In this document: positions 9,494 to 19,703 of the stretch, piece by piece
Position numbering within the stretch: position 1 is the stretch's first letter
Layout of the letters: each line of letters begins with the position of its first letter
Virus record (IMG/VR): IMGVR_UViG_3300029305_007917
DNA from: an uncultured virus (IMG/VR IMGVR_UViG_3300029305_007917)
Taxonomy: Duplodnaviria > Heunggongvirae > Uroviricota > Caudoviricetes
DNA length: 20,000 bases
Reading direction: 5' to 3' (one strand)
Position numbers and translations under genes: made by a program
Notes under the pieces: model-generated
What the model was told of the DNA's origin: nothing
Databases searched by the model: none
Seen by the model: the letters and a program-made list of their open reading frames with translations, nothing else

Positions 9494-9526
9494 GGGTATA
9501 GTCAATTTCAGAACGGAGGATTGCAT

Positions 9527-10051
9527 ATGGGATTTCAAGATGAGCTACGAGCCAATATGAAAACGAAAGAGGAAGCTGATAAACTTAATCAGGAAAAGCT
9601 CAACAACACCCTTCGTGCTGAAGCAAGGCGAGTAGTTGATGAACTGCAGAAAGTGTTGATTACAAAAGTTAAATCTGCAGATTACACAGAAGAAAATGGA
9701 AAAGCAGTAGTAACCGGTGTCTTCCCACTTTCAAGACGATTTCTCATTAGTCGCAGGGTTGATAACAACGCAGCAGTTATAGCTAACAGTAAGAAGTGGT
9801 TATTCAAAGACCCCTCCGTTGTCTATAGAGCATTTTACTATTTTGAGTTGAACTCAACTTATGCTGAAGAGTATGAGCAGTTGAAACGCTATATCCGGGC
9901 GATGGCTACCAATGACAAAATCACTGCCGAGTTTGTTTTGTACGATAAACATAAAAAAGAAGTTCATCCGTTCCCAACCCGAATAGATAATTTCCTTTTA
10001 GAATGTGACTTCACACTCGCAGTGAGGGGTACTACTAAAATCGATATTTAG
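9527..10051 (+). CDS. Hypothetical protein
   Basis: 174 aa, GGAGG RBS, own promoter; no recognised motif. Confidence 0.75.
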   Translation: MGFQDELRANMKTKEEADKLNQEKLNNTLRAEARRVVDELQKVLITKVKSADYTEENGKAVVTGVFPLSRRFLISRRVDNNAAVIANSKKWLFKDPSVVYRAFYYFELNSTYAEEYEQLKRYIRAMATNDKITAEFVLYDKHKKEVHPFPTRIDNFLLECDFTLAVRGTTKIDI

Positions 10052-10133
10052 CATATCAGCGGGGACTTTATTTCTTGATGTTTTTTCAACTTTTGCACGA
10101 GTTAGAAATTTCTAAATCAGCAAAAAGTTAACC

Positions 10134-10207
10134 TTGCAACCCACTATACTAAATTGCAACCTGCTCTCTGCATTTGCAACCTACCCCTTGAATTTGCAAC
10201 CTACCCC
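10134..10207 (+). repeat. Four TTGCAACC boxes at exact 20-bp periodicity
   Basis: Copies start at 10134, 10154, 10174 and 10194 with 12-bp variable linkers. Confidence 0.9.
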
Positions 10208-10262
10208 AATTTTGTATCAAAGGTGGAGTAGTTAGACACCTAAGTACAACTTAGGTAATACA

Positions 10263-10301
10263 ACCGAAATCCCTTGAAATATAGGGGTTTCGGTCTTTTT
10301 T
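10263..10301 (+). terminator. Terminator-like hairpin
   Basis: ACCGAAATCCCT / AGGGGTTTCGGT plus T tract. Confidence 0.65.
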
Positions 10302-10307
10302 ATGCCT

Positions 10308-10336
10308 AAAAGCACTCTGAAAATGGGTGCTTTTTT
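10308..10336. terminator. Second, bidirectional terminator-like hairpin
   Basis: AAAAGCACTC / GGGTGCTTTT(TT). Confidence 0.6.
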
Positions 10337-10361
10337 CATTTTTTGTGTCACCGCAATATTT

Positions 10362-10445
10362 GTAATCGTTTACGGAGTATGGGTAATCGTTTACGGAGTA
10401 TAGGTAATCGTTTACGGAGTACGGGTAATCGTTTACGGAGTATAA
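10362..10445 (+). repeat. Tandem 4 x 21-bp iteron-like repeat
   Basis: Invariant 18-mer GTAATCGTTTACGGAGTA at 10362, 10383, 10404 and 10425, each followed by 3 variable bases. Confidence 0.95.
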
Positions 10446-10464
10446 AACTATCGATACTTTGATA

Positions 10465-10493
10465 TTGAATTTAAAAACGACTTATGGTATAAT
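10465..10493 (+). promoter_or_regulatory. Strong SigA promoter with extended -10
   Basis: TTGAAT-17 bp-TATAAT with TGn before the -10. Confidence 0.75.
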
Positions 10494-10497
10494 TGCC

Positions 10498-10655
10498 TTG
10501 CGACACCAAAAGAATAAATGCACGAAAAGTGGTATGGTTTTTATCCTTGATAAAAATGCATGCTCTGTTTTCATATCATTTTTTGTGCTGAAAAGGTGTC
10601 GCAACCGAAAGAGTCATGCGTTTTTAGGCGTGTGGCTACGGTTACACGCTTTTTT
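10498..10655 (+). ncRNA. Candidate structured 5' leader (attenuator/riboswitch-like) or sRNA
   Basis: Nested stems 10498-10507/10595-10604, 10520-10537/10571-10588, 10538-10545/10549-10556, then a terminator hairpin 10628-10649 with a C(UACG)G loop and U6. Confidence 0.65.
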
Positions 10656-10669
10656 GTCAAGGTGATATT

Positions 10670-10972
10670 ATGAGCAAATTGAAAACAGTACTTGAGGAAT
10701 ATATGGAAGAAGAAAACGCAAGAATTGAAAAGGAAATCGCAGAAGCTCCTGAACTTAAGATGTCCCGCAGATTGCGAAAAAACACCAATGCCTTCTTCCG
10801 TGAAGACCTGAAAATTGACCATGCACACCATCCGGAAGTTGATAACGCATGGGAGCGTTTTAGGACTCGTATGTATCTCAAGTATCCACAGTACCCATGG
10901 ATTTCAAGACTCTATAAAACACGCAAACGCAGAGAAGAGCGTAACCGATATAAAGAGGATGACGAAATATGA
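10670..10972 (+). CDS. Hypothetical protein (acidic N-terminus, basic C-terminus)
   Basis: 100 aa, RBS AAGGTGA, directly downstream of the structured leader. Confidence 0.7.
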   Translation: MSKLKTVLEEYMEEENARIEKEIAEAPELKMSRRLRKNTNAFFREDLKIDHAHHPEVDNAWERFRTRMYLKYPQYPWISRLYKTRKRREERNRYKEDDEI

Positions 10973-11148
10973 AAACAACTCTCACTCAAAAACAGTATAA
11001 GGACTATCAGCAGTTATGTGAAGACAGAAGAAATGGTCGTATTTTAACCCCTGATGGTTTGCGATTCATCTGTGAGGCAAATAATTACGACCCCGAAGCT
11101 ATTGGTAAACACTTTTTAGAGGTACTCCCTAAAATCAGTAATCACTAA
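10969..11148 (+). CDS. Small 59-aa hypothetical protein (absent from the ORF track)
   Basis: ATGA overlap with the upstream stop, RBS GAGGA; MKTTLTQKQYKDYQQLCEDRRNGRILTPDGLRFICEANNYDPEAIGKHFLEVLPKISNH; terminator follows. Confidence 0.7.
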   Translation: MKTTLTQKQYKDYQQLCEDRRNGRILTPDGLRFICEANNYDPEAIGKHFLEVLPKISNH

Positions 11149-11152
11149 TTTG

Positions 11153-11187
11153 AAAGTCAGCACAATTTGTGTTGGCTTTATTTTTTT
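11153..11187 (+). terminator. Intrinsic terminator
   Basis: AAAGTCAGCACA / TGTGTTGGCTTT (G-U pairs) plus T7. Confidence 0.6.
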
Positions 11188-11343
11188 GAAAAAATTTGTC
11201 ACAAAACTCAAATTAATTACGATTATATTAATGAGAGAATAAATGATGATACACCCATTTATATCTTTCAAATTTCAATGCCAATATTCCTCTTGGCGTT
11301 GGGACCCCTGCCTATAGTCAGTGTGGTAGGAGTTTTTTACATT

Positions 11344-11390
11344 AAAAAGCCTGTGAATTTGGAAACAACATCCAAGCTCACAGGCTTTTT
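11344..11390 (-). terminator. Bidirectional terminator ending the RM operon
   Basis: AAAAAGCCTGTGA..TTGGA / TCCAA..TCACAGGCTTTTT. Confidence 0.75.
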
Positions 11391-11394
11391 GCAT

Positions 11395-12624
11395 TTATTC
11401 TGTTTTTCTGTATTCCTTTAATGATTCCACAATCAAGTTGGAAAGCTCCTCGATTTCGCTACTGTTGTGCTTTGAATAGCTGTCAATAAGGAAACGAGTA
11501 TCAACTAATATTCCCAACACATATTTATGGTTTGCAGTTTCAGAATTATAGGTTTCCCAATCAACAGTTCCTACACTCACAAACTTATAAACATCATCTT
11601 TCTTAAGCTCTTTATCGAAAGGCATTATAAAAGCATTATACACTGTGTTCTTTGCATGACCGATGTTTTCACAAGCATAGTCACCATAAGTTATCTGCTT
11701 TTCAACTGATGAAGATGCAGGCAAATGCTGTGGGTTTCCGGTTATACCATACTTATAGTATTTTGCATCAAGAATATAGAGCTTATTCTCATACATCATT
11801 ATCGTGTCAGGCTCCAATGCACTACTCTCAACCTTGCCACCATTTATAATATGCCATTTTGCATGAGGGAAGTATTGCTCTTTGTTGTTTTCACCGAAAA
11901 CATAATCAATCATTTTTTCCCATACATATTCAAAGCGTTCAACACCAAAAGCAGCAACATCAGTATCATCAATACTTTCACTTTTATTGCTGATAATGTT
12001 AATCATACTTTGAAACAGCAATCGTTTGTTGGTGTTAAAAGTGCTATTAAGAGCATCTTGTAACACGGTCAAGAATTTCCTTTTATTAAACTTTATATCA
12101 GGTTTCTTGGGGAGAGTGTTACTTGATAAATATAACCACCCTAATTTTTCAAAGCTTTCTCTTACACAGTATTCGTGAATTTTGGTTAGAAGGTTGTTGG
12201 TGTTGGTCTTATCTACCTTGACAATAAAATCTAAATAGACAAGGTTACCATTGTTATAAACAGGTTTTTTGTTTTGGATTGTTCTCTTCCAATTCAGCTT
12301 TCCTTTTTTACCATCTTTGTATTGAGTTTCACGTTCAATGTAATATCCGTGAGCCAAAAAATCTTTGATTATGTATTGATATGAAAGAATCGGAAAGGAG
12401 AGGCTCGATTCACCGTCAATGGTGTTATTGAGTAAGCCTTCTTTTCTGCCACTGAATTTTTGTATCGTTGCAAAAAGGCGTATAATATCCTTGCGAGTTT
12501 GTTCCTCATCATCAACCAAATGAAAACCTCTTGGAAAGGTAATTCTCGGCTGACCATCAACGAATTTTAAGCCCACAAAGTCATCGTATTCACTTTTGCT
12601 TATCTCACAAAAATCACGAAGCAT
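11395..12624 (-). CDS. LlaJI-family (McrC-like) restriction endonuclease subunit
   Basis: FVG...FPRG, GKLNWKRTI, FEYVWEKMID, LEPDTIM...ILDAKYY (PD-(D/E)xK), KQITYG; follows an McrB-like gene. Confidence 0.88.
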   Translation of the reverse strand: MLRDFCEISKSEYDDFVGLKFVDGQPRITFPRGFHLVDDEEQTRKDIIRLFATIQKFSGRKEGLLNNTIDGESSLSFPILSYQYIIKDFLAHGYYIERETQYKDGKKGKLNWKRTIQNKKPVYNNGNLVYLDFIVKVDKTNTNNLLTKIHEYCVRESFEKLGWLYLSSNTLPKKPDIKFNKRKFLTVLQDALNSTFNTNKRLLFQSMINIISNKSESIDDTDVAAFGVERFEYVWEKMIDYVFGENNKEQYFPHAKWHIINGGKVESSALEPDTIMMYENKLYILDAKYYKYGITGNPQHLPASSSVEKQITYGDYACENIGHAKNTVYNAFIMPFDKELKKDDVYKFVSVGTVDWETYNSETANHKYVLGILVDTRFLIDSYSKHNSSEIEELSNLIVESLKEYRKTE

Positions 12625-12632
12625 AGCACATT

Positions 12633-14633
12633 TTATCCTTTTAATTGTTCATACGAATCAACAATTGCACTGACTACTGAATCTATGTCAGTTTCCACTG
12701 TTGCTTCAATTTTAAAGTAATGGTCATAATGTCCATTGTAAGGGATTTCAGAACCTAAATTTTGCAATTCAATATTAGTTGGTTTTTCTATTTCAATTAC
12801 AATCGAATTAGTTTTAAACTTAATCTCTGCATAGGATTTGTTTTTAGGATTGTCGTTTGACCCTATTCCGATGTACTGTTTACTTGAAGTAGTATATGTA
12901 TATGTGTTAGGGATTTTTTCAAATACCTTTTCACGAAGACGCATATACAAATCAACGAGAACTTGATTTTTGTTGTCTAAATATTCTGCTTCATCAACCT
13001 TTTCTATTGAATTCTCAACATATTCATCAAAAGCTAAATTTGAATTGAATACTGCAAATCCTTTTGTTTCAAAAGCTGATAACAAATCTTCCAATGTTTT
13101 ATATTCGGTATTAAATATAATATCTCTGTCGTATTTAAATGCATCATTCCACAAATACATAAGAACTTTTTCACCGAATATTTTACGACTTTTGAGGTCG
13201 TCTGATTTCACAAAATATGCGCCAAGACGATTATCTTCGCTACTCAAATTACCATCGCTGATATCAATAATTGTGTCATTGATTCTTTTAGCAAAAATAT
13301 ACCAAGTAACATTAGTTCCTGCTATACATTCGTCAGCGTGTTCACAAGCTGCAATATCGTTTTTAATACTACGCATAACCCATCTACGCTTGAAAGCAGT
13401 ATCCAAGGTAAATACATTTTGGTCAGCTGTATTCATTGTAGCTAAAATGGTGAGGTTTGTAGGGATTTTCACTTCATGCTCTTTATCACCATAAACGTAA
13501 CTTGCTATATCGAAGTTGGTTATTCCATACTCACTTTCGCCATTCTCTCTATCAAGAAGTTGAAATACCTCACCGAAAATAGCTGGGGCATTACCTCTAT
13601 TGATTTCTTCAATAACGAGGAAATGCATTTTACCTTCTTTGTCGTCTATTGCATCTTTCAAGATTTTTGTGAAAGGCCCCGCAGTGAATTTATATGTAAT
13701 ATTTTCTTCACCGTTACTCCTATCAATTATAGGTAAGATTTGTCCTATAAAATCTGAGTAGGTATAATCAGGATGAAACACTACTCTTTCCATATACTTT
13801 TTATCATTGCAGTAGTCTCTTTTGATAGTATGGCTTTTTCCACAACCCGGAACACCATACAAAATAACATTTTCACCCATTACTGTAGTCAAAGGTTCAA
13901 CAGCCACTGATTCTTCACTCTTATCTCGGTGGTCATTTAGCAAATATTCCAAATAGACAGTTAAACTTGAAAACTTTTGTTTTACATCTTCGTATTCCGC
14001 ACCAATATATGTTGTGTCGCAAAGAGAAATCAAATTATTCAGATTATATTCAGGGTTTAAGGCGAGTTCACTTTGACTTGCTTTTCTAAAATAATTAGTA
14101 CCCAACAAGAAATTAAACACTGAATTTACTGATTCGTTCTTCTCTGCAGAACCCCAAACAACGGAATTGTATGCTTCCTTCATCTGCTCTTTTGATACCA
14201 CTGTTAAGCCATTTGTTTTCATATAGGAAAGCAAATGATATAAAATGTGAATTATTTTTCCGTTAACCGGTTGGATATAATTCAAAAAGACAATATCCAT
14301 ATAATCCTTGACGGTAATATTTCCTTTGGCTACCTCAATTGCTAAATCAGTTAAATCCAAGTCACTGTTTTTCCATATTCCCATCTCGTGACCAATAGTA
14401 TACTGACTTTCAAAAGCACCGACATTTCCAGAATAAGTGCCTGAGTCAAATTTGAACAATTCGTATGCGTGTTCTAATTTTTCAGCTATAATTTCTTTGT
14501 CACTGCGGTCCGAGTTTTTATTGTTAATTTTAGTTTGATATGTTGCGTGAATTAAACTTAATAATGTCTCTGCTTTTTTTGTTCTACACAAAGTATCAAA
14601 ATAAATATGATTGTGATTTCCACAAAAAGCCAT
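12633..14633 (-). CDS. McrB-like AAA+ GTPase restriction subunit
   Basis: Walker A GVPGCGKS, FHPDYTYSDF, Walker B IEEINRGN, McrB signature TMNTAD, LDTAFKRRW. Confidence 0.92.
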   Translation of the reverse strand: MAFCGNHNHIYFDTLCRTKKAETLLSLIHATYQTKINNKNSDRSDKEIIAEKLEHAYELFKFDSGTYSGNVGAFESQYTIGHEMGIWKNSDLDLTDLAIEVAKGNITVKDYMDIVFLNYIQPVNGKIIHILYHLLSYMKTNGLTVVSKEQMKEAYNSVVWGSAEKNESVNSVFNFLLGTNYFRKASQSELALNPEYNLNNLISLCDTTYIGAEYEDVKQKFSSLTVYLEYLLNDHRDKSEESVAVEPLTTVMGENVILYGVPGCGKSHTIKRDYCNDKKYMERVVFHPDYTYSDFIGQILPIIDRSNGEENITYKFTAGPFTKILKDAIDDKEGKMHFLVIEEINRGNAPAIFGEVFQLLDRENGESEYGITNFDIASYVYGDKEHEVKIPTNLTILATMNTADQNVFTLDTAFKRRWVMRSIKNDIAACEHADECIAGTNVTWYIFAKRINDTIIDISDGNLSSEDNRLGAYFVKSDDLKSRKIFGEKVLMYLWNDAFKYDRDIIFNTEYKTLEDLLSAFETKGFAVFNSNLAFDEYVENSIEKVDEAEYLDNKNQVLVDLYMRLREKVFEKIPNTYTYTTSSKQYIGIGSNDNPKNKSYAEIKFKTNSIVIEIEKPTNIELQNLGSEIPYNGHYDHYFKIEATVETDIDSVVSAIVDSYEQLKG

Positions 14634-14637
14634 TTAT

Positions 14638-15873
14638 TCACACCTCCGAATATTTCTTTAAGAAAGCATTCACCCCATTTGCGAGTGTTTTTGCAAACAA
14701 TGGTGGTACAGCATTTCCAATCATTTTATATGCATCTGCCATAGAACCTACAAATTCAAAGTCATCGTCAAATGTCTGTAAGCGTGCTGCCTCACGAACA
14801 CTAATTGCACGAGCTTGTTTTGAATCATAGTGGATAAATCTTAAGCCATCTTTGTAAAGATGAGCTAAAATAGTTGTGCTTGGTTTGTCTTTTCTTAAGA
14901 CATGGTACTTATGCACTTTAGAATTCGCACCGGTAGCCTGATTGTAAATCTCGTTAAGTTTAGCTGAATCCTGATACAAATTTTCACCGGTCTCAATATC
15001 GTGAGCTAACATTCTAAAGATTTTTATATCTCGTTCATTTTGAAAACGAGCAAAATGCCAAGAATAGTCGCATTCCGGGATTGAATGTGATACTTTTCTT
15101 CCGTTTATCACAACTACCTCTCCGGTGGGATAACATCCGGGCATATCACCTATGGCATCAAATACGGTTTTCTTTACTTTAACTTTATATGACTCCAAGA
15201 TTCTAAAGTAAAAATCCTTTATGATTTCCTGAATGTCATATTCTTTAAAGTATTCTTTGTTAACTCCAAGAATTATAACTCGTTTTCGTTGTTGTGGAAC
15301 ACCGAAGTCACTTGTGTCAAGGACTGCCTTACTTAAATCTTCTAACACTTCATAACCGTTACTATTCATATCTCGTTTAATCAAATCTACAATAGGTGTT
15401 CCATCAGGCATTGCAGAAAGCATTCCCGGAACATTTTCAAAAACAAAAACTTTCGGTTTGTAGCGAGATACAATTTTAAGATAATACTCAAATAAATAGT
15501 TACGATAATCATTTTTCATACTATCCTTGTCGCTTACTCTGCCTGCAACAGAATAAGCCTGACACGGAGGTCCACCAACAATGACATCAATTGAACGATT
15601 GTCTATCAATGCATCTAAACCCTTGTTGCTCCCATATTTACCATCGTCCTCAAAGCCATTACACAACTCATCAAAACGTTGCATATCAAAACGAATTACA
15701 CTTTCTTCCGAGTCAACGCATCCCCACTTATCAGCAAGTCTTTTTCTCAAAGTATCTACGGGAGCTTTCTCCCATTCAACAGATGCAATTGAAGTGAAAT
15801 GGTTTGATTGCAAAAATCCGTCAAGCAATCCACCACAACCCGCAAAAAGGTCAATTGTGTTATACTTTTTCAT
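14638..15873 (-). CDS. DNA (cytosine-5)-methyltransferase 2
   Basis: DLFAGCGG, GGPPCQ, ENVPG, QQRKR, REAARLQTF, IGNAVPP; ATG at 15873 is best spaced from GGAG. Confidence 0.95.
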   Translation of the reverse strand: MKKYNTIDLFAGCGGLLDGFLQSNHFTSIASVEWEKAPVDTLRKRLADKWGCVDSEESVIRFDMQRFDELCNGFEDDGKYGSNKGLDALIDNRSIDVIVGGPPCQAYSVAGRVSDKDSMKNDYRNYLFEYYLKIVSRYKPKVFVFENVPGMLSAMPDGTPIVDLIKRDMNSNGYEVLEDLSKAVLDTSDFGVPQQRKRVIILGVNKEYFKEYDIQEIIKDFYFRILESYKVKVKKTVFDAIGDMPGCYPTGEVVVINGRKVSHSIPECDYSWHFARFQNERDIKIFRMLAHDIETGENLYQDSAKLNEIYNQATGANSKVHKYHVLRKDKPSTTILAHLYKDGLRFIHYDSKQARAISVREAARLQTFDDDFEFVGSMADAYKMIGNAVPPLFAKTLANGVNAFLKKYSEV

Positions 15874-16954
15874 TGTCATTCTCCAAATAATTTAATATCT
15901 GCATAGCAATAGCCTTGCCCAATAATGGAGGCACTGCATTACCCACTTGTTTATATTGTTCTTGTTTATTTCCAACAAATATAAAATCATCCGGGAAACT
16001 TTGTAATCTTGCATTTTCTCTCACTGTTGGGATGCGATTGTACTTGTAATGGAAATGAGTTCGATGTCCGGTATCAATAGTTAGAGAAGGCTTTTTGCTT
16101 GAGTATCTATGTAAGCTCTCATGATATTTGAAATTCTTCGCTAATTCAGGGGGTAAATCCGTATATTTTCCTCCATCTGGAACCAATTTCAAATGTGATA
16201 TTGTTTTTTCTGTATGTTTAGTTGGCGCGTGATTATATACTCTTTTAGAGTTCTTACGCATTATCTTTTGATATTCAGTCAAAGGTTCTACCGGGTAGTC
16301 TCTCACAGTAGAAACACTAAAATCTGTTTCACCTTCCAAGGACGGTAAGTCCCCAATTGCATCTTCGCAAGTTACATAGTTATCTTCTGTAAACGAGGGC
16401 ATGGGATATTCAAATTGGTCTTCTGAATTTAAGATTCCTACAAAAAAGGCTCTTTTTCTAATCTGTGGGACACCGTAATCCGGAGCATAAAGAACTTTAA
16501 CATTCATTGTATAACCAAGATTTTGAAAATCCGTAAATATTTTTTCTTTACCCATACCATTATACAGAGTAAGCATACCCGGAACGTTTTCCAATACAAC
16601 AAATCGAGGTTTCAATTTTTCTGCAGTTTTTACCATTGCCTCATACAAGGTGTTTCTTTTATCTCCTTCCTCACGTTTACCCGCAAGAGAAAAACCCTGA
16701 CAAGGGGGTCCACCCACAAGAACATCAAGAGTTAAGTTTTGTGCATTTAGCTCATCAATAATACACTGAATATTATCGTGGTTAAAAAGGTCTAATTTCA
16801 TTGGCTTCGCTGAACCGTGATTCTTGCCAAAGGTTTCTAATGCCGCATTATCGAAATCAACACCTAATACTACATTAAAACCTGCATCATAAAAACCACG
16901 GGAAAGTCCTCCGGCCCCTGAAAACAAGTCAATACAATTATACTTTCTTTCCAT
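15860..16954 (-). CDS. DNA (cytosine-5)-methyltransferase 1
   Basis: DLFSGAGG, GGPPCQGFS, ENVPG, QIRKR, RENARLQSFPD, VGNAVPP. Confidence 0.95.
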   Translation of the reverse strand: MERKYNCIDLFSGAGGLSRGFYDAGFNVVLGVDFDNAALETFGKNHGSAKPMKLDLFNHDNIQCIIDELNAQNLTLDVLVGGPPCQGFSLAGKREEGDKRNTLYEAMVKTAEKLKPRFVVLENVPGMLTLYNGMGKEKIFTDFQNLGYTMNVKVLYAPDYGVPQIRKRAFFVGILNSEDQFEYPMPSFTEDNYVTCEDAIGDLPSLEGETDFSVSTVRDYPVEPLTEYQKIMRKNSKRVYNHAPTKHTEKTISHLKLVPDGGKYTDLPPELAKNFKYHESLHRYSSKKPSLTIDTGHRTHFHYKYNRIPTVRENARLQSFPDDFIFVGNKQEQYKQVGNAVPPLLGKAIAMQILNYLENDNEKV

Positions 16955-16994
16955 GATATTACCTCGTTCAACAACTGATTTTTTCGTAAATTAT

Positions 16995-17024
16995 ATTATA
17001 TCATAAAAATGCACATTTTGTCGA
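16995..17024 (-). promoter_or_regulatory. Promoter of the RM operon
   Basis: Minus strand TCGACA-18 bp-TATAAT with TGn extended -10. Confidence 0.55.
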
Positions 17025-17049
17025 TAAAAATTGAAAATTAATCTCAATT

Positions 17050-17526
17050 TTACAAATTTATGACTTCAACACCATTTTCTTTTGCATACTTGACAGTGTA
17101 AGCCGTGCCACCTGTGTTTTTAGTAAGATAGCTGATACAAAGGCTACTGTTATCTACCAAATGACGATTACGCTTGAACATACATTCCGGGGTGTAGTTC
17201 TTTTCAACATAAACCACCTTGTTTGCCTTTTTAAGAATGTCATTGAATACTTTGACATCCTTTTCCAACCACCCCTTAAATTGGTCGTAGCAAGGCAGAA
17301 CGAGGATAAGCTTTACTTGTGGGTGTTTTTCTTGAAGTGACAATACTGTCAGTGCCGCAAGTGTGTCAAATCCCAAAGCTCCTCCACAGCCAAAGTAACA
17401 ATAACCCTGACTGATTAAATCCTCAAGTAAATCTGTCAACTGTATTTTTAAGGCTTCATAGCGGTCCTGTGGAATGACTCTGTGACCGGTAAAGCAAACT
17501 GTATGTAAGCGCTTCTCGTCAACCAT
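17050..17526 (-). CDS. SLOG-superfamily protein (DUF1273/YspA-like)
   Basis: VCFTGHR, GGALGFD, RNRHLVDNS, GGTAYTVKYA. Confidence 0.88.
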   Translation of the reverse strand: MVDEKRLHTVCFTGHRVIPQDRYEALKIQLTDLLEDLISQGYCYFGCGGALGFDTLAALTVLSLQEKHPQVKLILVLPCYDQFKGWLEKDVKVFNDILKKANKVVYVEKNYTPECMFKRNRHLVDNSSLCISYLTKNTGGTAYTVKYAKENGVEVINL

Positions 17527-17528
17527 AA

Positions 17529-17912
17529 TCAATCATCCATAAACATTAAATATTCAGCTTCACGACCTAAAAGTCGTTTTCTTATTTTATCGTCCTTTTC
17601 TTGCAGAAGAACAATCATCCTATCGATGATTTTTTGAACATCACCATCGGTATAGCGTTTATCAAAACAACCATATCCTGAAAAATGGTCTTCCCGCAAA
17701 AGCATAGTCAGTAATGCACAGCATAAATCAAAATCTGCAGTATCGACACGCATTAACTCTTCATCACAATTAATGGGTGCTGTTGTCATAAAATCATAAT
17801 AGTTATATTTTATTAAACCTTCTTTTTCTAAAAGTTCATAGTAGTAATCTGAAAAGCAACAAGGCATCTGTGGTTTGATTTTCAGCTTTTCAATCATTTC
17901 TTTGATAGCCAT
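17529..17912 (-). CDS. Small helical protein (DUF6508-like, tentative)
   Basis: LLTMLLREDHF..G.F.....DG.V..II pattern; RBS GGAAGGTG; own promoter. Confidence 0.65.
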   Translation of the reverse strand: MAIKEMIEKLKIKPQMPCCFSDYYYELLEKEGLIKYNYYDFMTTAPINCDEELMRVDTADFDLCCALLTMLLREDHFSGYGCFDKRYTDGDVQKIIDRMIVLLQEKDDKIRKRLLGREAEYLMFMDD

Positions 17913-17956
17913 AAAGTAACAGCACCTTCCTTCTGTTTCCCATAAAATACAAATAT

Positions 17957-17985
17957 ATTATAAACATCTTAATAGCATTAGTCAA
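17957..17985 (-). promoter_or_regulatory. SigA promoter for the 17529..17912 / SLOG operon
   Basis: Minus strand TTGACT-17 bp-TATAAT. Confidence 0.7.
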
Positions 17986-18110
17986 TTGCAGTATGTAGGT
18001 TCAGTCCCATTTTTCGGTCTTATAATTTCAAAAAAATTTTTTATAATACACAAACCCTAATAACATCAAGGGTTATGAGATTTTTTGAAAAGAAATCGCA
18101 AAAATAGGGG

Positions 18111-18165
18111 TTGACAAAATCAAAAACCATCGCTACAATAGTAAGCACAACAGAACAAATGTTCG
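18111..18165 (+). promoter_or_regulatory. SigA promoter with a Firmicutes LexA (SOS/Cheo) box
   Basis: TTGACA-17 bp-TACAAT (18111-18139), then AGAACAAATGTTCG (GAAC-N4-GTTC) at 18152-18165. Confidence 0.8.
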
Positions 18166-18202
18166 CTTAACAAGGGCAACATAAGAAACAAAGGAGGATG
18201 CA

Positions 18203-18476
18203 ATGGTTTTAACCTACCAAGAATTAAATGACATGGCTCAAAAAATAGTTGATGAATATCGTAGCCCCAACGACCACCCATACATCAACGTTAATATTGA
18301 AGAGCTCTTTAAAAAGTTGTACAACCTAAAATTTAAGTTTTGCGACTTGAGTGGCAACAGTTCCGTATTGGGACTTTTTTCATCTATACCTATAAGGTTC
18401 ACCATTAAAGAAAATGGTATCTCCACTCTCATTCAACTTGATGGGCAAACTGCCCTCATTGATGAAAGCCTCTTGC
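18203..18476 (+). pseudogene. 5' fragment of an ImmA/IrrE-like metallopeptidase gene
   Basis: AGGAGG RBS; VNIEEL...L.F.F.DLS...SVLG...TALIDESLL resembles the ImmA/IrrE N-terminus; no HExxH because the frame runs into antisense qatD sequence. Confidence 0.55.
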
Positions 18477-18940
18477 ATCATTTTTATGCTTCCACTATAC
18501 CAATGTATAATTGCTTTTGTCACATTGTTTTTTTTCAGTATGTCAAAAGCCTCTTTTTCAGAATTGCGTACATGAACTGAAAGAATTTTGTGTTTTGCTG
18601 CAGATTCTTTGCATATAAAATCAAAAATTTCCATCTGCTTATTTTTGGTGTCAATATACTTTTTTGAAAAATCAAGACCAACTTCACCAATGTATTTAGT
18701 TGTTGACAATTGATGTAAAAACAATCTTTTATTGAAATTCACCACTTTGATTTGCTGTGGATTAAAACCAAGAGCGAATTTAATAAATTTACTTTCAGGA
18801 TATATCTTTTTGCACGAATAATAAATCTCAGGAGTGTTTGTTACACAAAGAGTGTATTGTTCCAATTTATTGATTTCTCTATACCAATATTCATGATTAC
18901 TATAATGATCTAAATGAAAATGGGTATCAATCAGTTTCAT
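18470..18940 (-). pseudogene. qatD: TatD-family nuclease (QatD-like), 3' truncated
   Basis: IDTHFHLD, VTNTP, ALGFNP, IGEVGLDFS, ILSVHVR, IIHWYSG; lacks the C-terminal FSIN/ETD part; read-through ORF ends at 18380. Confidence 0.75.
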
Positions 18941-18944
18941 ATAA

Positions 18945-19703
18945 TCACTCCATTATTGCTTTAAGTTTTGGATCTTTTGAAAACATTTTATATAAATCAT
19001 CAATGGATTTTTTATACAAACTCAAAAATTTCAGTGATTCTTCATCATTTAAATGTCCTGTCCCGCGAATTCTATTTAAAATTTCTTGATCTGTAGATTT
19101 TTTTGCTAAAGCAACAGAACTTATCAAATCGACTAAATCCGAGCGCGTATTATTAGTTCCATTCAAATAGTGATTATATGAAATCGCATCAGGGGTTTTA
19201 TACTTATCTTGAGGCAATGTAAGGTCTAATAAAGAAGATTGACGAATCAAACAGGGATAACAATATCCACAATTACTAGGGGCCGAATCACCTTTCCAAC
19301 GACCGTTTTTGGGATGAGAACAAGAAATGGTTAAATGTATTTTGTTTAAAAAACCATCAAAATCTTTAAGATTTTGAACCATTTCTCTCTTTGTTAGAAA
19401 AGCGTAAGGATTTGAAACACAATGGCTTATACCTAATTTGGATAAAATAGAATTAAATGATTTTAAAAAATAGGGATGCGTCGTCCTTGTGCTACAACTG
19501 CCTTTTCTGCTTGCTGTAAGTGGTAAATTCAAACCAATAAATCCATTTTCAGGAATATAAACCGGTGTATTATCTCCAATTAAATCGGCAATACAAATAG
19601 CAGCACTCAAAAATAAAAATGACCTGCTTCTACTCGTGTTTTCTGTTTTCGCAAAATCCGAATATAAAGGTTTATAGGCTCTGGCTGAAAAAGAAAAAAA
19701 CAT
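18945..19703 (-). pseudogene. qatC: QueC-like Qat protein QatC, 5' truncated
   Basis: ENTSRSRSFLF, PENGFIGLNLPL...STRTTHP, NPY..LTK.EM, SCSH, CGYCYPCLIR; no SGGxDS PP-loop and an in-frame stop at 19791-19793. Confidence 0.78.

Follow-up and report, generated by a model that had tools for sequence, protein, structure and literature searches.

The stretch of DNA analysed here (20,000 nucleotides from an uncultured Caudoviricetes virus record, hereafter the window) carries an element which, judged by comparison with its homologues, is a real, conserved and covarying RNA and one copy of a widespread, multi-copy Clostridia family. The element is very probably a transcription attenuator of some kind. 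The family was present in roughly one quarter to one third of the Clostridia genomes sampled, mostly ahead of accessory genes such as those for BspA-type surface proteins, and its prevalence and copy number therefore point to a large unrecognised regulon in gut-type bacteria. With its helices named, the trigger becomes accessible to a test by a few compensatory mutants.

Anatomy and covariation of the leader RNA

The strands, the terminator, the 14-nt spacing and the alternative pairing described in a sequence-only reading of this region were correct base for base. The outer stem is formed by TTGCGACACC (10498-10507) and GGTGTCGCAA (10595-10604), and the 18-bp stem (10520-10537 / 10571-10588) has 14 Watson-Crick and 4 G-U pairs with no mismatches, so its exceptions are indeed all G-U. 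An 8-bp hairpin (10538-10545 / 10549-10556) follows, and the terminator (10628-10649) runs into T6 (10650-10655), 14 nt ahead of the ATG at 10670. As the alternative, AGTCATGCG (10612-10620) can pair with CGTGTGGCT (10629-10637) at 9 of 9 positions, three of them G-U, while AACCG (10603-10607) complements CGGTT (10639-10643). The element folds at a minimum free energy of -60.5 kcal/mol (z -4.75), and none of 200 shuffles folded equally well. The helices named in that reading stand, and it had overlooked two others, the covarying helix X (10551-10566 / 10610-10626) and the hairpin P4 (Table 1).

Table 1. Features of the leader RNA and its downstream genes in the window
Feature	Position	Strand	Evidence or remark
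Sigma-A-type promoter (TTGAAT, 17 nt, TG-extended TATAAT)	10465..10493	+	Consensus score 10/12, TG present
Leader RNA, putative +1 to end of terminator U-tract, 156 nt	10500..10655	+	Full-length covariance-model match
P1, 5' strand	10500..10507	+	Partner strand 10595-10602; covariation
A-rich 5' bulge between P1 and P2	10508..10519	+	Internal-loop asymmetry in copies
P2 rod, 18 bp	10520..10588	+	Strands 10520-10537 / 10571-10588; covariation
P3 hairpin, weak (mean -4.0 kcal/mol), masks the A5 tract of Xa	10538..10556	+	
Xa, apical strand of anti-antiterminator helix X	10551..10566	+	Covariation; RNAalifold
P4 hairpin GGT[GTCGCA]ACC, alternative to P1	10595..10606	+	Swapped controls
Xb, partner of Xa or of terminator 5' strand; contains invariant U5	10610..10626	+	Covariation, swaps
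Intrinsic terminator, 9 bp, UACG loop, U6	10628..10655	+	Covariation
100-aa helical protein, function not assigned	10670..10972	+	First gene; predicted to depend on read-through
59-aa protein, common small family	10969..11148	+	Overlaps stop of 100-aa gene; 301 relatives

The promoter is the top match within 9500-12000. Across the family, 134 of 148 copies have a -10 box 5-7 nt upstream of P1, the distance being exactly 6 nt in 123 of them, and 99% of 167 copies have a purine 7 nt past that box; this spacing places the putative transcription start at G10500. If that is correct, the perfect 10-bp outer stem reported from near +1 holds in the DNA and shortens to 8 bp in the RNA; the -1 base could pair too in 90% of copies, which makes an outer stem of 9-10 bp possible. 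An internal promoter ahead of the gene was found in only 1 of 208 copies. In two RNA runs (shares 0.12 and 0.09, contigs only), no contig covered 10459-10611, which is no sign that the element is silent.

Homologues were collected with a covariance model, R1, which was made from 26 of 30 excised elements (the other four were set aside, respectively for truncation, degeneracy, near-duplication and poor folding) and which contained only P1, inner P2, P3 and the terminator; the window element itself belonged to its training set, and its model match is to be read in that light. In an alignment of 105 copies (mean identity 60%; 80% weighting in the mutual-information scan, none in pair counts), 95.5% of the cells in P1, P2, X and the terminator were paired. 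The expectation that homologues would covary was borne out, as two-sided changes occurred at 33 of 40 pairs: 11/11 in P1, 5/5 in P2, 9/15 in X and 8/9 in the terminator. Counts for P1, P2 and the terminator are biased towards R1, while those for X, the anti-terminator and P4 are unfitted because these helices were absent from it. The terminator was 99.3% paired, and X reached 95.1% despite its absence from R1. An unguided mutual-information scan ranked P1, terminator and P2 pairs first, with P1 involved in the top three, and also selected two X pairs (z 12.6 and 7.7); RNAalifold likewise picked helix X unaided. The anti-terminator was 92.6% paired, mainly via G-U, with two-sided changes at 3 of 11 pairs, below the shuffles (480/500 equally high). 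P4 is a hexaloop hairpin built from the 3' strand of P1 and the adjoining linker, and can form only once the 5' strand leaves; in 194/220 sequences its native stem averaged 4.07 bp, compared with 3.07 bp after swapping, where the best of 1000 controls reached 3.28. G-U cells far outnumbered A-C cells in every helix, with ratios of 50:2 in P1, 133:1 in the terminator and 175:13 in X, an asymmetry that identifies the + strand transcript as the one that pairs.

Rods measure 24-45 bp (median 33), with linkers of 7 and 5 nt and an X of 15 bp (185/214 copies); the 7-nt linker barely lengthens with rod length (rho 0.21). In the first internal loop, the 5' side is the bigger in 80% of folded copies and reads AUA in 54%, and the corresponding bulge in the window (10508-10519) is likely a hinge. 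The P2 rod sequence varies from paralogue to paralogue, and in four orthologues identity is 71-100% for the rod strands, compared with 54-68% for third codon positions. At least 90% conservation was reached by 39 columns, of which 34 lie in helices, three in the terminator U-tract and two are free. By these comparative measures P1, P2, P3, X, the anti-terminator, the terminator and P4 are all conserved. A 14/15 match between the bulge and 11390-11404 was put down to chance, since it is not mirrored in the orthologous locus L028, and an inverted match of the terminator to 10930-10947 was dropped as not kept in orthologues (by eye). A U.A-U triple helix was ruled out by strand polarity.

Distribution of the family and the genes it precedes

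The family had not been recognised from the sequence, and the Rfam searches agree. With Rfam 15, the window gave no match at gathering score, 10498-10655 gave none at E<=10, and across 40 homologous loci only tRNA, 5S and tmRNA reached gathering score, all away from the element. The family resembles the Weinberg-type orphan motifs of Rfam 15 and the RNAs of Fremin and Bhatt 2021 (PMC8040213) in being a covarying intergenic RNA of gut-type bacteria with no trigger assigned; unlike the Rfam 15 orphan motifs, the element reaches no family's gathering score, whether in the window or in the 40 homologous loci. The RNA was nowhere described in the literature searched, most subscription papers being outside its scope. 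Five family motif strings were absent from the supplement text of PMC8040213, where the first 10 LRR_5 and BspA places were likewise unrecognisable as the family. The family is thus uncatalogued as regards Rfam 15 and literature text, and it may correspond to an unnamed candidate in the alignments of PMC8040213 or PMC11109978.

Relatives of the 100-aa gene led to six loci, three of which (L028-L030, Acutalibacteraceae or Clostridia) share the RNA, while two distant ones (L031, L032) are without it. BLAST matched the element in 33 of 401 genomes of the taxonomic family of genome G001. R1 at E<=1e-5 matched 42/151 genomes in that family, 55/151 in the order, 42/151 in the class and 2/151 in the phylum, each count taking in G001. 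Copy numbers from R1 are lower bounds because 19 candidates were scored per genome, and five genomes picked for high counts had 13-20 matches apiece. The 65-kb virus-classed source record holds one copy. BLAST of the element against phages and plasmids gave no genuine match, and an exact-pattern scan of viral contigs returned identical copies on two contigs and otherwise chance matches. A metagenome pattern scan gave 36 stretches, none homologous by profile, and the 100-aa gene was likewise absent when viral and metagenome contigs were scanned starting from its protein.

Most copies are followed by a gene: an ORF led by a ribosome site was found after 131 of 149 copies, and 72 of these start within 30 nt of the terminator. 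The downstream scan covered 102 of the 131 ORFs, after removal of repeats, of members of the window's own family and of the majority of remote or uncertain calls. These 102 proteins included 16 of the BspA-type LRR family along with several other surface families, four XRE-type HTH, two AbrB/MazE, three SLOG, five SHOCT, two Band-7 and two AMP-binding proteins, and one each of KAP, HNH and EcoRI-type methylase; no family was assigned to 43. No common pathway linked the 102 proteins, and no shared partner or neighbour gene was found in 148 loci. tRNA genes occur in 10 of 60 loci (no formal control), which suggests that copies near them sit at island edges.

The proposed tie of the switch to two small genes beside a defence locus is therefore best seen as an incidental association, because the family precedes unrelated genes and the 59-aa gene lies behind the 100-aa gene in just one of three close orthologous loci (L028). 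The 59-aa gene is no fixed partner of the RNA: none of 17 regions upstream of its homologues held the element (by eye), and none of these loci reached E<=10 with the RNA profile. The 100-aa protein has 11 close and 106 distant relatives (49-133 aa) and no Pfam or NCBIfam match, and its structure model is of low confidence (pLDDT 66) with no fold match. Autoregulation by this protein was rejected, as its gene follows just four copies, L031 and L032 are without the RNA and the model is weak.

Mutually exclusive helices and readings of the probable switch

The claim that terminator and anti-terminator exclude each other held up. In the window, the two folds are balanced at -51.5 and -51.4 kcal/mol, and the family means are -15.3 for the terminator, -15.0 for the anti-terminator and -16.2 kcal/mol for X; of 105 nested full-length folds, 56 adopted the terminator, 32 the anti-terminator and 17 another structure. 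Native anti-terminators averaged -15.8 kcal/mol against -13.3 for swapped ones (best of 60 swaps -13.9), and by this measure the anti-terminator is co-adapted within each copy. A third helix adds to the exclusion, since pairing of Xb with Xa excludes its pairing with the terminator 5' strand. X is no nested alternative to the rod, because X plus terminator without the rod reaches just -26.1 in the window; it must therefore either cross the rod as a pseudoknot or join another molecule. X is also specific to each copy (native -16.9 kcal/mol, cross-copy within a genome -12.3, other genome -11.7; 65/73 copies), and divergent paralogues in a single genome have X strands that are very different yet complementary. 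Genome-wide cross-talk through X was set aside, as the within-genome excess is small (-0.63 kcal/mol, p 0.0005; P1 -0.31, p 0.047) and plausibly reflects relatedness.

The predicted layout thus has a terminator ahead of the start codon, a balanced antiterminator (with few two-sided changes) and an upstream anti-antiterminator, X. Three overlapping helices are likewise described for the vmlR leader (PMC9226507) and the PyrR-controlled pyr leaders (PMC7430163) of Bacillus subtilis; there, as would be the case here, the first helix takes the antiterminator strand to give termination, and an intrinsic terminator lies directly ahead of the gene. In contrast to their nested hairpin, the anti-antiterminator of this family would pair over a long range in the manner of a pseudoknot, starting from the apex of a rod of about 33 bp, and the family has no conserved uORF or PyrR motif and stands in many copies before unrelated genes. 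The motif of PyrR-bound leaders, ARUCCAGAGAGGYU (PMC7430163), is absent from the family consensus, and pyr families account for 0 of the 102 downstream proteins. The family also resembles riboswitches that act on transcription with NusG-dependent pausing, the M-box among them (PMC11602163), in that folding of its 5' domain would hold the antiterminator strand and a T-rich tract stands where a pause would allow time for this; it differs from them in having no Rfam match, scarcely any conserved unpaired bases, no common gene function and a putative pause. ANTAR elements consist of two hexaloop hairpins with A1 and G4; this type was rejected, as P4 is the sole hexaloop and its loop starts with G or U in 192 of 194 cases.

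The reading to which we give about an even chance is an attenuator acting in cis, gated by helix X, with a kinetic or general-factor input. During transcription, the rod and P3 would fold first. Xa would then capture Xb, nucleating at CUC/GAG and displacing P3, which is feasible because Xb emerges ahead of the terminator 5' strand; the terminator would form, and X within the same molecule would be a bent pseudoknot, a 16-bp helix from the apical loop of the rod. A pause near the invariant U5 would set the time window for X, and if X were late or blocked, the anti-terminator would form and polymerase would continue into the gene. Under the strain imposed by X, P1 would come apart and P4 could arise, giving a short RNA with a free 5' end, while the read-through RNA would retain the 5' stem that protects it. 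The most likely input is a general one and not a metabolite, either altered elongation or pausing throughout the cell or action on the rod by a general helix-binding protein or nuclease. This input is favoured because 34 of the 39 conserved columns lie in helices, no conserved leader uORF with a ribosome site over the anti-antiterminator was found in 204 copies, and an antisense promoter occurred in 1 of 156 copies, equal to the control (1/156), in a search limited to promoters resembling the family's own. Since strand exchange explains nearly every conserved base, the family may be an RNA-only switch with an undescribed type of input. Its elements have precedents, the three-helix logic being established for vmlR (PMC9226507) and NusG pausing for riboswitches (PMC11602163). 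Against action in cis, the geometry of X is awkward, as linkers of no more than about 7 and 5 nt would have to span a rod of 24-45 bp, and X, within a closed loop, is longer than one helical turn; U5 fits the NusG motif TTNTTT at only five of six positions and is already explained by pairing; the anti-terminator has few two-sided changes (3/11 pairs); and no candidate factor was seen among neighbour genes in the 148 loci.

A pure cis switch also has no need of gene-less copies with promoters of their own. Such copies are found in tandem arrays of 2-3 leaders, 44-130 nt apart, with no gene between (L257:2049-2718, L260:2576-3221, L258, L261, L262, L243, L151 and L314). In L257 copies 2/3 and L260, the promoter, P1 and platform are 89-100% identical and the rods 47-64%; in seven further arrays the flanks have diverged as well. 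The X geometry, P4 and these gene-less copies, all of which disfavour cis action, keep alive a protein-free self-sensing feedback in trans, which we regard as unlikely, though ahead of the other rivals: the rod of the terminated short RNA, perhaps cut by RNase III, would be opened, its Xa would meet the nascent Xb of the same locus, and termination would be forced, shutting the locus off. While intact, the rod would sequester Xa from the Xb of the same molecule, and the 3' product would refold into P4. RNase III has size requirements for its substrates, and the rod is never below 24 bp while its sequence is free. A trans duplex also suits an X that exceeds one turn between short, fixed linkers and a P4 that requires removal of the 5' strand, as well as the copy specificity of X; moreover, cross-compatibility is higher among gene-less tandem copies (-13.4 kcal/mol) than among unlinked copies (-11.4; native pairs -15.3; 17 copies, 8 arrays), a comparison that duplication confounds. 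Per-copy covariation is equally consistent with pairing in cis, and the free Xb of the mature RNA could itself absorb Xa. Precedent is offered by the phage P4 CI RNA and Gifsy-1 IsrK (PMC4825925), which are likewise short-RNA leaders on horizontally acquired DNA, complementary to their own transcript (here Xa with Xb) and with a terminator partly read through (predicted here); they differ in their unrelated sequence, and the present family has a Gram-positive intrinsic terminator, a separate X per paralogue and trans action and processing that are hypothetical. If feedback in trans were true, output would come as a pulse on entering a naive cell and paralogues would be addressed one by one; through copy-specific X, the surface and island genes of a genome would come under at least a dozen orthogonal circuits for pulse or dosage control, with gene-less tandem copies of unrelated rod as additional emitters or sensors.

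Other readings appear less probable still. The many-copy layout ahead of surface-protein genes resembles second-messenger regulons, and the order of aptamer, then platform, would suit an orphan riboswitch whose ligand, be it an ion or a small molecule, binds the bent X pseudoknot, stabilises it by M-box-like compaction and turns genes off; in the M-box, too, folding favours termination (PMC11602163). The ligand control suggested earlier is nevertheless improbable, a metabolite aptamer being hard to place when only 2 of 39 conserved columns fall outside helices and U-tract, X diverges strongly inside one genome and the downstream genes share no pathway. It is slightly more doubtful that the short RNA is itself the product (a trans sRNA, decoy or guide with a variable rod), with the genes co-opting by-product read-through: the strong promoters, the 5' end sealed in a helix and the near-identical scaffolds with dissimilar rods in L257 copies 2/3 and L260 would fit, whereas the co-adapted anti-terminator, the adjacency of most copies to a gene start and the lack of a shared partner gene in 148 loci would not. 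Rods as guides or sensors were rejected, as no rod target was found in the sequence flanking 136 copies, where the mean score was 9.2 vs 9.0 (p 0.19), or, for one array, in its host genome and in phages. Ribosome stalling on a vmlR-type leader peptide, or a pIP501-type antisense RNA, acting on the three helices is very improbable: the anti-antiterminator logic is that of vmlR and starts with a ribosome site of <=-6 kcal/mol are more frequent than in shuffles (16% vs 9%), but the median site energy is -3.1, strong sites amount to 3.4% vs 2.6%, start and frame are not conserved across four close orthologues, and the antisense control also raised earlier finds no support in the promoter counts given above. 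Least credible by far is a role at the level of DNA, be it as an operator pair, a recombination site or a MITE-like repeat, with incidental folding; multiple copies, tandem arrays, nearby tRNA genes and GGTGTCG-like repeats at neighbouring element junctions would agree with it, and the G-U bias on one strand, three covarying and mutually exclusive helices, fixed promoter spacing and the variable spacer of the central palindrome disagree.

Surroundings of the element in the window

The element has a small-gene region on one side and a convergent LlaJI-like restriction-modification cluster on the other, with QatC- and QatD-like genes beyond. A 20-bp hairpin at 11344-11390 separates the convergent small-gene and LlaJI units and is likely a bidirectional terminator. 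The source record contains two versions of the LlaJI-like cluster (G000:C1 1-7400 and window 11395-18580) whose methyltransferases differ; the ORF at 18203-18580 encodes 125 aa, and its counterpart in the other copy 220 aa. The QatD-like and QatC-like genes (18380-19703, - strand) are shorter than the NCBIfam models and score below cut-off. Short relatives of the 100-aa protein stand on either side of XRE-type HTH-like genes at L032:4623-5752, two in all and in opposite orientation, with no RNA.

Just 5' of the promoter, at 10363-10443, lie four tandem 21-bp repeats with the core GGTAATCGTTTACGGAGTA; variant arrays of 3-4 copies occupy the corresponding position in L028 and L030 and are absent from L029, and the repeats are possibly protein-binding sites at an island end. 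Further upstream, four TTGCAACC motifs with a 20-bp period (10134-10202) are followed by a junction near 10238, and it is from there on that L028 and L030 match; in both of these loci a tRNA-like 3' end stands ahead of the junction, which suggests an attachment site between two elements. As well, in seven loci (L005, L008, L009, L012, L013, L018 and L019) the 59-aa homologue is preceded, at about 110-200 nt, by a junction that is sharp and conserved (GAAATYAAGAC...TTTRATACAA) and is followed by three repeats of GGGGTGTCG or GGGGTTTCG type. In several of them this junction seems to split a DNA-methyltransferase-like ORF (by eye), and it is possible that the element it bounds targets methyltransferase genes.
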